Part shown: piece by piece, positions 54,527 through 58,228 of the stretch
Layout of the letters: every line of letters starts with the position of its first letter
Numbering within the stretch: position 1 is the stretch's first letter
Source: an uncultured Gemmatimonadales bacterium
GTDB taxonomy: Bacteria; Gemmatimonadota; Gemmatimonadetes; Palauibacterales; Palauibacteraceae
Direction: 5' to 3'
Assembly (NCBI GenBank): GCA_963783385.1
Contig: CAWANJ010000006.1
Span: forward strand, 320,001-384,000
Length of the DNA stretch: 64,000 bases
Made by a program: the position numbers and the translations under genes
Notes under the pieces: model-generated
What the model was told of the DNA's origin: nothing
Databases searched by the model: none
The model's input: the letters and a program-made list of their open reading frames with translations, nothing else

Positions 54527-54847
54527 GCGCGTTCCTCCCTGTCGCGGGGCGGGAGCCCCTCGGGGGGCGGTCGGCTCGCGGGTCGCGGCCCTTTCCCGGG
54601 GGGCAGTGCTTCGCGCTCCAACCTACGGGCTGCGGAGCGGGGACGCAGGGCCGCGTAGGGGCCGCCGACCGCGGGACGCGCGCGCGCGGCTTCCGCGGAA
54701 CTCGCTCGGCGCCCATACGGGCCCTGACGGCCGAGGCCCTTGTGGCGTAGTGGCATGGGAGATCCACATATTGAGACCGTAGACAGGAATCCGTCCCTTC
54801 CGAATTCGTACGGGACCAATGGCCGCACCCCGGGGAGCGTGAACGCC

Positions 54848-55480
54848 ATGACCAACCGCGACCGGCTCGTGCTGGCTGCGGGAGAGCTCTTCTGCCGTAA
54901 CGGTTACGCCGCCACCTCGGTGGAGGACATCCTGGAACACACGGGCGTCGCCCGCAGCAACTTCTACTACTACTTCGATGGCAAGCTGGACCTCGCCCGC
55001 GAGGTGTTCCGGCGCTGGGTCGGGGACTTCGAGGACCATCTGCGCGGAGCGACGGCGGCCCAGGGCGACGCCGCCGGGACGCTTCGAGCCATTTTCCACG
55101 AGGTGCGCGCGAGCTGTCCCGGCGAGAGGACGGATGCGCGCCACGGCCAGCCCTGCCCCATGGGCCCGCTGGTCCTGGAGCTCGCCCCGCACGACGAAGA
55201 GATCCGCTCCGTGGCCACCGAGTTCCTCGATACGCTGCGGAGCGCGCTGAGGGAGACGATCGCCGCGGGAGCCGGGCGAGGCGAGTTCGACCCCAGGCTC
55301 GACCCGGGGCCGGCGGCTGCGGTGGCCCTCGCCACCCTCCAGGGGGCGCTGCTCCTGTGTCACACACTCGGCCATACCCAGCCGCTCCGGAGCGCCGAGT
55401 CGGCCCTCCTGGAGCTCCTGGTGCCCCGGGAGTCCGGTCCCCGGTCCGACCCGCTCCCGGGGGACGCCTCCAGCTTGTGA
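54848..55480 (+). CDS. TetR/AcrR family transcriptional regulator
   Basis: RDRLVLAAGELF..GYAATSVEDI..GVARSNFYYYFDGK; C-terminal CPMG motif. Confidence 0.93.
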   Translation: MTNRDRLVLAAGELFCRNGYAATSVEDILEHTGVARSNFYYYFDGKLDLAREVFRRWVGDFEDHLRGATAAQGDAAGTLRAIFHEVRASCPGERTDARHGQPCPMGPLVLELAPHDEEIRSVATEFLDTLRSALRETIAAGAGRGEFDPRLDPGPAAAVALATLQGALLLCHTLGHTQPLRSAESALLELLVPRESGPRSDPLPGDASSL

Positions 55481-55503
55481 GCGGGCGCCTGCCCTTCTAC
55501 GTT
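55475..55503 (+). promoter_or_regulatory. Putative sigma-70 promoter for the intergenic element
   Basis: TTGTGA (55475-55480), 17 bp, TACGTT (55498-55503). Confidence 0.45.
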
Positions 55504-55596
55504 CGGTGACGTTCACGCGCCGCGTCGGGGTGTCGGCGGGGCGCGCCGGACACCGGAGTCGTGCCCGATCCGTCCCTTTCGAAAGGAGGTGATCCA

Positions 55597-55665
55597 GTGT
55601 CTGCAGGGAGTAGATTCGAGCCTGGCTCGGCAAGGGCAAGCGATCGCCTCGGGGTCGCTCGCTAG
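55597..55665 (+). CDS. Putative 22-aa small protein MSAGSRFEPGSARASDRLGVAR
   Basis: GTG 7 nt after GGAGG within an extended SD; TAG at 55663-55665. Confidence 0.4.
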   Translation: MSAGSRFEPGSARASDRLGVAR

Positions 55666-55768
55666 GAAGGGTCACCTTCCGCGCGAGCGTACGAGAACGC
55701 TCGCTCGCTTCGGCTAGTCGTCGCGGCCAGCAGAGGCATCGCGTCGAGTCAGGCCGGAGAGTACCCCT

Positions 55769-55809
55769 ACGGCCGCAGTGTCCCACCGGACGCTGCGGCC
55801 GTTCTGCGT
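55769..55809 (+). terminator. Terminator-like hairpin
   Basis: ACGGCCGCAGTGTCC-CACC-GGACGCTGCGGCCGT (15 bp, one G-U), followed by a weak U-tract TCTGCGT. Confidence 0.45.
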
Positions 55810-55962
55810 CCAGTTACCAGGGGGCGTAGACCGGAGGGGGGCGGGGGCGCGCCGCACGCGCGCGGCGCGGCCGGGGGGACACGCCCGGGCACGGGCGCTC
55901 CACGGGCGCGCCCCCTCCGCTCCGCTGTCTCCAGCTTCGGCCGCGGCCTCACCGGTGGCTCA

Positions 55963-57276
55963 TCAGCCGACCCGCCGGCGCTTCCCCCGCATGTAGTCCA
56001 TGAGGATGTACTGGCCCAGGCTCATCGCGTTGGCGAAGTAGGCCTTGCCCCGGGCGATCCGCGCCACTTCGCGAACGAAGGCCACCAGCGACGGATCGCG
56101 CGCCAGCATGAAGGTGTTGATCGGAACCGCCGAGCGGCGGCAGGCGCTCACCTCGGCGAACGTCTCGCGGAGAACGCGGCGGTCCAGCCCCATCGAGTTC
56201 GTGTACACGCGGCCGTCCGGCAGCGTCATCGCGCTCGGCTTTCCATCCGTGATCATGACGATCTGCTTCATCTGCTGACGCTGACCCCGCAGGATGCGGC
56301 GCGCCAGGCGCAGGCCCTCGGCCGTGTTGGTGTGGTAGGGACCCACCTGAGCGGTGGCCAGCCGCGCCAGCGGGATCTCTTCGGCCGAATCGTGGAAGAG
56401 GACGCAGCGCAGCGCGTCGCCGGGGAAACGGGTGCTGATCAGGTGGGACAGGGCCAGCGCCACCTTCTTGGCCGGCGTGAACCGGTCCTCCCCGTACAGG
56501 ATCATCGAGTGGCTGCAGTCCAGGAGGAGCACGGTGGCGCAGGTGGAGCGCTGCGGGGCCCGGTGCACCCTCAGGTCGTCGTAGGTCAGGGGCAGGGGGA
56601 ACTGCGTTCCCGACCGGGCCATGACGTTCCGGAGGGTGGCCGGGACGTCCAGGTTCATCGTGTCCCCGAACTCCCACGGCTTCGAGCTGGCCTCGGCCTC
56701 CACGCCCGTGGCCAGCATCCTCGTCTCGTGGACGCCGGCCGCCCCGTCGCCCCTGCCGCCGAGCAGGTCCCGCAGCGACCGGTAGCCGAGGAAGTCGAGC
56801 CCCTTCTCGGTGAGCTCGAAGGTGACCGAGCGCGCCGCCTCACGCTCGGGCTCGCGCTCCCGACCCTCCTCCGCCGTATCCACGGGTCCCGGTCCGGGCC
56901 CGGACGCCTCGCCGGGCCGCGCCTGACCCACCTGGAGGTAGCCCTCCTCGGAGAGTCGCTGCACGACATCATCCAGGAGCTCCGCGATGCGGCGGACGAC
57001 GTCCGGATCGGCGTCTCGTCCGTCGCGCAGGGCCCGCACCATCTCGGGGGTGAGCTCGCCCTGGTCGAGAAGCGCCTGGAGGATGGCCTGCTTGAGGCGC
57101 TCCAGGTCCCGGCTGCCGGGCTCGCCCGGCTCGCCGGGGCCCGTGGGTCCCCACCAGGGTGCGCCGCCCGCGAAGCCACTGTCCAGGAGGAAGTCGGACA
57201 GGCGATCCAGGAGCTCCTGGAGGTTCAGGGCGTCGACCAGGTCGCCCCGATAGCGCTCGTACGTCGTGGTGCGCAT
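55963..57276 (-). CDS. VWA domain-containing protein
   Basis: ATVLLLDCSHSM (MIDAS), YHTNT, MITDGKPS, INTFML. Confidence 0.9.
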   Translation of the reverse strand: MRTTTYERYRGDLVDALNLQELLDRLSDFLLDSGFAGGAPWWGPTGPGEPGEPGSRDLERLKQAILQALLDQGELTPEMVRALRDGRDADPDVVRRIAELLDDVVQRLSEEGYLQVGQARPGEASGPGPGPVDTAEEGREREPEREAARSVTFELTEKGLDFLGYRSLRDLLGGRGDGAAGVHETRMLATGVEAEASSKPWEFGDTMNLDVPATLRNVMARSGTQFPLPLTYDDLRVHRAPQRSTCATVLLLDCSHSMILYGEDRFTPAKKVALALSHLISTRFPGDALRCVLFHDSAEEIPLARLATAQVGPYHTNTAEGLRLARRILRGQRQQMKQIVMITDGKPSAMTLPDGRVYTNSMGLDRRVLRETFAEVSACRRSAVPINTFMLARDPSLVAFVREVARIARGKAYFANAMSLGQYILMDYMRGKRRRVG

Positions 57277-57370
57277 GGGATCGCCTCCGGTTATGCTGGG
57301 CTCGGGCGAGGGGCCCGCCGCGCGGACTCCTCACATCAAGCTACCCGACCCCCGGCCTCGGTTCCATCGC

Positions 57371-58228
57371 ATGCGCCAAGCCATCCGTCCGGGACTCGTG
57401 TTCGCCAAGTACAGCGGGGCCGGCAACGATTTCGTCATCGTCGAGGCCTCCGAGCTCGGTGACCGTGACCCCTCCGAGCTCGCCGTCCGGCTGTGCGGGC
57501 GGACCACCGGAGTCGGGGTCGATGGCCTGGTCCTCGTCCGGCTCGAGGGCGACGGCCGGCTCGGAGTCCGCTTCTTCAACCCGGACGGCTCGGAGTTCGG
57601 AACCTGCGGCAACGGTACGCGATCGGTGGCCCTGTGGGCCGCCGATCGAGACCTCGGCCTCGAGGGTCGGCTGGCGATCGAGACGAGCGAGGGAGCCGTC
57701 GCGGCCGCCGTGCGCGGGGATCGGGTGGAGCTGGACTACGAGATCGACGCCCGCATCGAGCGCCGCCTGGAGCTGCCCTACGCCGGGGAGTCCCGGTCGG
57801 CCTGGCTGGTGCAGATCGGCACGCCGCACCTGGTGGTTCCGCTCGAGGCCGTGCCGGAAGGCCCGATCGAGGAGCTCGTCCGCCCCCTCCGGCATCACCC
57901 GGAGCTCGGGCCGGCAGGCGCCAACGTCAACCTGGTCGCTCCCGCGGACGAGGGGCGCGCGACCATCCGGACCTTCGAGCGGGGGATCGAGGCGGAGACG
58001 CTCGCGTGCGGAGCGGGCTCGATGGCCTCGGCGATCGTGCTCCAGGCCACCGGAGCCTGCCGTGCGCGCCTGCTGCTGCACACCCGCAGCGGGGACGACC
58101 TCGAGGTGACCCTGTCGCCGGAGGAGTCGGGCCGGCCGCGCGCCATCCGCCTCGCCGGTCCGGCCCGGCGCATCTTCGAGGGCCGGCTGTACGAGTCGGG
58201 CCCGGCGGAGGACGCGGAGGGCGGATGA
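57371..58228 (+). CDS. dapF: Diaminopimelate epimerase
   Basis: KYSGAGNDF, GVGVDGL, FNPDGS..TCGNG, GTPH, NVN, RTFERG.E.ETLACGAG. Confidence 0.93.
   Translation: MRQAIRPGLVFAKYSGAGNDFVIVEASELGDRDPSELAVRLCGRTTGVGVDGLVLVRLEGDGRLGVRFFNPDGSEFGTCGNGTRSVALWAADRDLGLEGRLAIETSEGAVAAAVRGDRVELDYEIDARIERRLELPYAGESRSAWLVQIGTPHLVVPLEAVPEGPIEELVRPLRHHPELGPAGANVNLVAPADEGRATIRTFERGIEAETLACGAGSMASAIVLQATGACRARLLLHTRSGDDLEVTLSPEESGRPRAIRLAGPARRIFEGRLYESGPAEDAEGG

Follow-up and report, generated by a model that had tools for sequence, protein, structure and literature searches.

Small RNAs that carry a complement of the 3' end of 16S rRNA have been described in Alphaproteobacteria under the name of rre genes, with rreB in Bradyrhizobiaceae and rreR in Rhodobacterales (Hahn et al. 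2016, RNA Biol 14:1353; PMC5711450). rreB of Bradyrhizobium japonicum is 165 nt long and contains a "17c-region" which is perfectly complementary to the 16S 3' end and takes in the initial base of a GTG start codon. The open reading frame (ORF) has 14 codons in rreB and 18 in rreR, and the start is GTG, or ATG in Azospirillum. A hairpin was predicted over all but five upstream bases of the region. Full-length rreB RNA co-sediments with 30S subunits, binding depends on bases upstream in the 17c-region, an rreB-egfp fusion was translated very weakly, and a change of GUG to UAG prolonged the half-life from 10 to 37 min. Overexpression of rreB by 20-fold had no effect on growth, and in the authors' judgement rreB RNA is greatly outnumbered by ribosomes. 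Analogues found by BLASTN are reported only from Caulobacterales, Rhizobiales, Rhodobacterales and Rhodospirillales, and the function of rreB "remains elusive" (PMC5711450). CC2171 is a small RNA of Caulobacter of unknown function, confirmed in Methylorubrum extorquens by Northern blot (bioRxiv 10.1101/2022.01.24.477521). The present analysis concerns an RNA in a window of 64,000 nucleotides (the whole stretch of DNA that was analysed; positions 320,001 to 384,000 of contig CAWANJ010000006.1, assembly GCA_963783385.1) from an uncultured bacterium of the phylum Gemmatimonadota. The RNA is probably transcribed on its own, from about 55511 to 55806 of the window, as a small RNA of the rre type that corresponds, in Gemmatimonadota, to rreB, rreR and CC2171. 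It is a new phylum's variant of a published and poorly understood kind, largely anticipated by the rreB work.

The complement of the 16S tail and its start codon

Two features are needed for this part of the locus:
55581-55597, + strand: 17c region, the complement of the 16S 3' tail, with GAAAG at 55581-85 and the Shine-Dalgarno core GGAGG at 55585-89
55597-55665, + strand: small ORF, with start codon GTG at 55597-99, 22 codons (VSAGSRFEPGSARASDRLGVAR) and stop codon TAG at 55663-65

The 17-nt motif GAAAGGAGGTGATCCAG, pointed out by an earlier note on this DNA as a complement of the 16S 3' end, was found exactly at this position on the + strand. The complementarity was confirmed against the host's own rRNA, with 17 of 17 bases matching, because the host 16S gene (G000:C9:511692-513253, one copy in the genome) terminates in ...GCGGCTGGATCACCTCCTTTCTAGG. 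The duplex of the motif and the host 16S tail is predicted to have 17 pairs and an energy of -33.0 kcal/mol. The final G of the motif is also the initial G of the GTG start codon, and both this start codon and the 22-codon ORF had been overlooked in the earlier note. A perfect complement of at least 16 nt to the own 16S 3' end, and a last complementary base that opens the start codon of a small ORF, are both features of the rre genes.

That the motif arose by chance, or is the remnant of a minus-strand rRNA operon, can be regarded as refuted. Read on the minus strand the motif is indeed a 16S 3' end, but no rRNA similarity flanks it, as had been noted before: Rfam at gathering scores returned no family, rRNA included, in the 64-kb window, and the sequence departs from the rRNA gene beyond CCAG. 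The G.U pairs and the T-rich tails of the RNAs suit the + strand only. An exact match was obtained in none of 100 dinucleotide-preserving shuffles of the window, and a match at up to three mismatches in 12 of 100. In the 3.54-Mb genome, searched at up to two mismatches, GAAAGGAGGTGATCCAG was found only at 55581-55597 and in the rRNA gene, the window motif being the sole non-rRNA copy. The conservation of the motif in the phylum, described below, argues against both chance and relic.

Related RNAs with motif and structure, which the earlier note had suggested looking for in related genomes, were found. The motif was present at up to one mismatch in 54 of 401 sampled Gemmatimonadota genomes, and a reversed control pattern gave 3 hits. 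By family (numbered f1 to f12), it was found in 21/29 genomes of f1, 1/2 of f2, 29/166 of f3, 1/94 of f4 and 1/7 of f5; at the same threshold and among the same sampled genomes, f6 gave 0/70 and f7 to f12 gave none. Relatives were gathered by pattern and box searches, and distant members may be missing. Searching 30 relatives with the Rfam model RF01867 (CC2171) gave 20 loci, 17 of which were true relatives on reading; L008, L017 and L023 were dropped since the motif was absent. Two further loci, L194 and L197, were false matches on reading. A search independent of the Shine-Dalgarno sequence was made with box E2, a conserved 16S-tail-like box inside the ORF. Applied to ten f1 genomes without a strict match, it gave four more RNAs, all with Shine-Dalgarno core and GUG. 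In three of the four, all of one genus, the sequence is AAAGGAGGTGATCTGTGTCT, one base shorter, with a complement of 13-14 nt, a 6-nt spacer, GUG and the same ORF. Because of these shorter complements, the full 17 nt is regarded as typical but not required. Every RNA of the set had the Shine-Dalgarno core and a start codon. Two further variants in f3 (L149-L151 and L157-L158) carry the motif without box E2, one with a 25-codon ORF (SSRDD..CC..) and the other with a 14-codon ORF (SHD.TKARI..); these loci were excluded from the structure and frame counts.

Changes within the motif were observed among 65 RNAs, A to G in 10 and C to U in 13, and the variants still pair with the 16S tail by wobble. 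The 16S tail was identical (GGATCACCTCCTT) in the one f2, one f1 and four f3 genomes checked; the RNA variants therefore do not track the 16S.

The ORF raises the question of whether the locus is an ordinary small-protein gene, in which the 22-residue peptide would be functional and the long Shine-Dalgarno sequence would only set the expression level. The start codon was always kept. GUG was found in 37/65 RNAs and UUG, which arises by a change of G to U at the first base of the start codon, in 28/65; in one f2 genome a one-base deletion makes AUG and leaves the frame unchanged. An ORF of 19-25 codons was present in every relative read, and in 58/64 RNAs the start lay 39, 42 or 45 nt from E2. 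The weak translation of the rreB-egfp fusion (PMC5711450) would also fit a small-protein gene, as would a Streptomyces locus (L096) in which the same 19 letters are the plain ribosome-binding site of a lanthipeptide-like precursor ORF. The distances in multiples of three were not counted as evidence because few independent events underlie them, and the length changes (about five in frame and three out of frame by hand count) were not significant. What makes a functional peptide unlikely is the pattern of substitution. The peptides align, but the substitutions by codon position were 49/46/46 (chi-square p = 0.94), without codon periodicity or a third-position excess. Conservation is limited to the residues R/W-A-S-D-R, which are encoded by the RNA box that pairs with the Shine-Dalgarno sequence. 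Three lineages shift the frame before or inside E2 (distances 40, 41 and 44) yet keep the RNA. Pairing with a G also accounts for the alternation of U and C at the third base of codon 2 (alignment column pair 62-94, U.G in 16 sequences and C-G in 10). The same crude count gave 7/5/6 for a sample of rreB and 29/35/33 for a sample of rreR, again with no third-position excess. We read these data as selection for a well-placed start codon and not for the peptide.

Conserved helices and two predicted folds

The strands and boxes of the fold are as follows:
55586-55603, + strand: 5' strand of the closed hairpin, GAGGUGAUC at 55586-94 and UGUCUG at 55598-603 (Shine-Dalgarno sequence, start codon and codon 2)
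55632-55650, + strand: 3' strand of the closed hairpin, invariant GGGC at 55634-37 and box E2 GCGAUCGCCUC at 55640-50, a mimic of the 16S tail
55620-55631, + strand: 5' strand of the long-range helix, pairing with 55743-55754
55743-55754, + strand: 3' strand of the long-range helix, partner of 55620-55631
55733-55742, + strand: box E3 GAGGCAUCGC, Shine-Dalgarno-like partner of E2 in the open fold

For the stretch 55560-55806 a folding energy of -132.5 kcal/mol is predicted (z = -5.78), and none of 200 shuffles was as stable. Alignment A1 comprised 26 sequences from f1 and f2 in 301 columns, and the RNAalifold consensus independently predicts the closed hairpin as two helices. In the first, GAGGUGAUC (55586-94) pairs with GAUCGCCUC (55642-50) by nine pairs; 234 of 234 cells are paired (100%), and one pair is changed on both sides, A-U in 18 sequences and G-C in the 8 of f2. 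In the second, UGUCUG (55598-603) pairs with the invariant GGGC region (55632-38). The long-range helix has 93.4% of cells paired and double-sided changes in 5 of 12 pairs. It continues into the helix of E2 and E3, in which 92.2% of cells are paired and a single pair has double-sided changes. Where E2 has C in place of U, in f2, both the Shine-Dalgarno sequence and E3 have G in place of A, and both partners of E2 therefore follow E2. The values observed for the long-range helix and the terminator were reached by 0/500 shuffles, and in slid controls the paired cells dropped from 89.9% to 27-44%. Predicted duplex energies are -17.3 kcal/mol for Shine-Dalgarno:E2 and -17.5 kcal/mol for E2:E3. An outer helix GGGAGUA/UACCCC, seen in single-sequence folds, was dropped, with only 55.8% of cells paired.

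The remaining hairpins and palindromes of this region are:
55529-34 and 55549-54, + strand: hairpin GGTGTC/GACACC
55575-55586, + strand: palindrome CCTTTCGAAAGG
55639-45 and 55653-59, + strand: AGCGATC/GGTCGCT
55651-55732, + strand: variable hairpin insert, with GGAAGG-GTCA-CCTTCC at 55665-80 and GCGAGCGT/ACGCTCGC at 55683-90 and 55697-704

All of the hairpins listed in the earlier note are in the sequence, but GGTGTC/GACACC and AGCGATC/GGTCGCT are absent from L010, of the same genus. The variable insert is present in the window's own fold, and other families carry different hairpins there. The palindrome CCTTTCGAAAGG, which had been proposed to mask the motif, did not hold up in this role; it recurs only in the nearest genomes within the genus, L011 and L193, and is absent from L010 and from the other genera read. 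The conserved mask is instead the downstream box GGGC..GAUCGCCUC. Two further observations were made on these boxes. GCCC (55563-55566) and GGGC (55634-55637) are mutually complementary and conserved in 26/26 aligned RNAs, the last C of GCCC being nearly invariant, and in the closed fold the start-codon region is a further partner of GGGC; since both are invariant, a pairing of the leader is beyond the reach of a covariation test. Box E2 holds an 8-base palindrome GCGATCGC (55640-55647), by which two RNA molecules could in principle pair with each other.

A mechanism can be proposed from these folds. In the free RNA, most of the 17-nt region and the start codon would be held in the hairpin by the 16S-tail-like box GGGC..GAUCGCCUC (55632-55650). 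The five 5' bases GAAAG, unpaired in the predicted closed fold, would remain free as a toehold. The 17-nt region would dock on the single-stranded 16S 3' tail of free 30S subunits as an unusually long Shine-Dalgarno helix, reaching up to the first base of the GUG start. The 30S subunit would displace E2, and opening would cost little because E2 would then be caught by E3. Tight binding of 30S through the 17-nt complement, as shown for rreB, would be expected here as well, and by the same analogy weak translation and a start-codon-dependent decay. Ribosomes probably initiate slowly on the 22-codon ORF, and initiation may matter for RNA turnover rather than for a peptide. Decoy, storage and maturation chaperone, the roles named in the earlier note, are candidates among which the sequence makes no choice.

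The likeness of E2 to an anti-Shine-Dalgarno sequence also bears on another explanation, in which the RNA would be a base-pairing small RNA acting on other mRNAs, either by E2 (GAUCGCCUC) binding their Shine-Dalgarno sequences or by the motif binding anti-Shine-Dalgarno-like sites. The predicted transcript, compact, structured and terminated, would suit such a role. We consider it very improbable: E2 has conserved partners within the same RNA on both sides, a conserved start codon at ideal distance would be left unexplained, and no mRNA target was found, no search for targets having been made.

Transcript ends and neighbouring genes

The following features were placed at the ends of the RNA:
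55475-55480, + strand: -35-like hexamer TTGTGA, overlapping the TGA stop of the tetR gene
55498-55503, + strand: -10-like hexamer TACGTT (TANNNT), 17-nt spacer after TTGTGA
55511-55580, + strand: 5' leader, with a genus-specific GC hairpin (55529-34 / 55549-54) and conserved GCCC (55563-55566)
55769-55806, + strand: terminator hairpin (stem 55769-83 / 55788-802) and short U-poor tail

Transcription would start near 55511 and end near 55806, giving an RNA of about 296 nt, in support of the stand-alone + strand RNA of about 300 nt that had been suggested. The promoter-like site proposed in the earlier note, TTGTGA-17-TACGTT, is in the sequence and recurs in the other three genomes of the genus that were read (L010, L011 and L193), the spacer differing. 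It is the same in L010, L011 and L012, and reads TTGTGG-17-TACGTT by eye in L193. The same build (TTGNNN, 16-19 nt, TANNNT) was found upstream of 31/64 distinct related RNAs, whereas shuffles averaged 2.27 and never exceeded 8. From the end of the -10 hexamer to the motif there are 58-82 nt in f1 and f2 and mostly 30-43 nt in f3. The window promoter has 7 of 12 letters of the consensus by hand count, and a generic scan of 55400-55900 for promoter and terminator consensus gave 0 of each; the promoter was retained despite this because it is conserved in relatives, and the scan missed the terminator because there is no run of T. The terminal stem has 15 pairs, one of them G.U. Its role as a terminator, also suggested earlier, is supported by double-sided changes in 11 of 14 counted pairs, with 94.6% of cells paired, and the terminators of relatives have T-rich tails on the + strand. 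A stand-alone transcript, as in the rre genes, would fit these features. A look-up of sequencing runs listed none of RNA and one of unknown kind, with a 0.20 share of words.

As noted before, the RNA lies between convergent genes, a TetR-family gene (54740-55480, +) and a VWA-domain gene (55963-57276, -). The gene order tetR, RNA, VWA is kept within the genus. In three other genera of the family (L004, L016, L021), dapF, the gene for diaminopimelate epimerase, starts on the same strand directly after the RNA; in the window dapF lies at 57266-58228, past the VWA gene. The minus-strand VWA gene thus stands between RNA and dapF in the window's genus, which suggests an insertion or rearrangement at 55963-58228. 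In f1 and f2 a divergent gcvH lies upstream of the RNA. In f2 the downstream gene is convergent and MscS-like. In part of f3 the RNA lies between an upstream Kdo-transferase gene and a downstream CAAX-protease-like gene. No neighbour gene common to all families was found in the comparison of gene order across families, as expected for an independent gene.

The position of dapF in the three genera could point to a cis-acting leader or attenuator of the downstream gene, and the presence of dapF just beyond the VWA gene in the window could be taken in the same sense. The likelihood of this is slight. A convergent gene comes next in the window, as it does in L006, L010 and L011, other genes stand downstream in f2 and part of f3, the strong terminator is conserved and covarying, and the ORF lacks the codon run typical of amino-acid attenuators.

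The window RNA compared with rre genes and CC2171

The earlier note had found no RNA family to which the RNA could be assigned. This stands as regards the gathering scores of Rfam, but the RNA resembles the rre genes and gave a sub-threshold match to RF01867. In a permissive Rfam scan, CC2171 (RF01867) was the best match, with E = 4.2e-4. Matches to RsmW (18.1 bits) and Betaproteobacteria-1 (17.2 bits) had E of about 1 and were taken as chance. The RF01867 consensus begins with the same 24 letters ucGAAAGGAGGUGAUCCAGUGUCU as the window RNA, and its 5' consensus GAAAGGAGGUGAUCCAGUGUCU is found letter for letter. The closing helix and inner hairpins of the model are not found; the alignment has non-standard pairs and low posterior values across the body. 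The closing helix CAUUGUC/GACAAUG of CC2171 is unmatched, the body of the window RNA being closed by a different helix. Like the window RNA, the model has a single-stranded 5' tail, a closed multi-hairpin body and a terminator. Among control genomes 1/14 passed the RF01867 cut-off and six matched at all, Caulobacter vibrioides among them.

Several points weigh against the assignment to the rre type. The window RNA scores 28.6 bits with RF01867, for which the gathering score is 75; the best Gemmatimonadota relative reached 34.8 bits, and 0/31 Gemmatimonadota genomes pass. Homology with the alphaproteobacterial RNAs is indistinguishable from convergence on the universal 16S tail. The invariance of the motif among most relatives is partly built in, because the search pattern by which they were collected fixed most motif letters. 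Covariation between RNA and 16S, which would have proved the pairing, is absent, the tail being constant in all families checked. The covariation in the closed hairpin is one double change confined to one family and probably a single event. In 60 single-sequence folds the partner of E2 was E3 in 34, the Shine-Dalgarno sequence in 12, a local sequence in 6 and another in 8. The closed hairpin and the long-range helix cross in the models, and would be either alternatives or a pseudoknot. For this organism the transcript, its 5' end and ribosome binding are predictions from sequence and from the analogy with rreB, the only one of these RNAs for which 30S binding was tested. If rreB is a guide, its overexpression without growth effect and its scarcity relative to ribosomes would argue against a simple or bulk sponge.

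The motif was also sought in other phyla. A species-wide scan with one genome per species for AAGGAGGTGRTCCAGTGTC gave at least 120 stretches. Among the matches listed, nearly all were alphaproteobacterial or labelled only Proteobacteria; the exceptions were a Gemmatimonadota chromosome, metagenome-assembled genomes (MAGs) of Planctomycetaceae, Cytophagales and Hydrogenophaga, a Streptomyces, and one "bacterium". The alphaproteobacterial loci among the matches listed can be assigned to the published types, their ORFs having 14, 18 or 21-27 codons. Among these (L024-L143) the rreB-type ORFs have 14 codons in 14 distinct forms and the rreR-type ORFs 18 codons in 38 distinct forms. As boxes like the 16S tail, rreB has GGAUCGCC and the CC2171 type CUGGAUCGUCGCCUCC, and rreR has CCACCUCC near its 3' end. 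In one Planctomycetota order (L041, L199-L213; G421-G571), to which the Planctomycetaceae MAG belongs, AAGGAGGTGRTCCAKTGTC was found at up to one mismatch in 40/151 genomes, with 0 for the control. The Planctomycetota loci read were like small RNAs, with terminators, a conserved GACGGCTGG upstream, and ORFs of 10-13 codons (GUG UCN or GUG ACN; recurring D-C..G-L). In the Streptomyces locus, the ORF after the 19 shared letters has 51 codons, is rich in Cys, Ser and Thr and resembles a lanthipeptide precursor, and a similar second ORF follows; the motif there seems to be simply a very strong ribosome-binding site. The Cytophagales MAG (L040, at a contig end) and the Hydrogenophaga MAG (L141) carry rreR-type and CC2171-type sequences typical of Alphaproteobacteria, which may be due to mis-binned contigs or transfer.

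A wider proposal is tentative, and we regard it as doubtful at present: rre-type RNAs would form a cross-phylum class in Alphaproteobacteria, Gemmatimonadota and Planctomycetota, in which the RNA and not the peptide does the work. They would act as a two-state device in which the tail mimic hides the docking site, 30S invades from the five-base toehold and the second box locks the open state. With the Planctomycetota RNAs the class would therefore span at least three phyla. In this way idle 30S subunits would be read out, held in reserve or protected. Protection could consist in covering the 16S 3' end, the site at which exonucleolytic decay of 30S begins.

In print, rre RNAs are known from four orders of one class, and what they do has been an open question since 2016. 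With the same build in a second phylum and small RNAs with the motif in a third, the arrangement would be ancient, transferred, or repeatedly arisen by way of the universal 16S tail. The Gemmatimonadota set shows three elements with matched changes, a Shine-Dalgarno sequence, a tail mimic and a Shine-Dalgarno-like catch, which are not clear in the alphaproteobacterial RNAs. A coding-type pattern of substitution is absent both from the Gemmatimonadota ORFs and from the small rreB and rreR samples, and the published view of conserved rre small proteins may need a second look. The vague question of small protein or ribosome decoy can now be reduced to concrete tests. For annotation, the RNA is a recurrent unannotated gene of Gemmatimonadota genomes.

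A strong Shine-Dalgarno-like sequence near the 5' end is shared by the window RNA with STAB-SD of Bacillus thuringiensis cryIIIA, a 5' stabiliser of Gram-positive mRNA which is thought to hold a 30S subunit. STAB-SD differs in lying in the 5' untranslated region of the long mRNA it protects, with no adjacent start codon, and we know of no internal 16S-tail mimic described for it.

The rre genes are closer. No description of rre-type RNAs outside Alphaproteobacteria was found in a partial search of the literature, which did not extend to the supplementary alignments of PMC5711450; the citations of that paper found in it were all from work on trpL (three papers). The rre genes belong to Alphaproteobacteria and the window RNA to Gemmatimonadota; rreB has 165 nt against about 296 nt, and the rre ORFs have 14 or 18 codons against 19-22 in Gemmatimonadota, with an unrelated peptide. 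UUG is the usual start in one Gemmatimonadota family, unlike the rre genes. The window RNA further differs in its longer 5' leader, the extra box E3 and the long-range helix. In common with the rre genes, it has a 16S complement (16-17 nt in the rre genes) whose last base opens the GTG, a very small ORF, a putative promoter and terminator of its own, and a complement placed in a predicted hairpin except for a few 5' bases. In both groups the neighbourhood is kept within a family and not beyond. By our own reading of the sequences, rreB RNAs also carry GGAUCGCC inside the ORF, a mimic of the 16S tail like box E2 of the window RNA.

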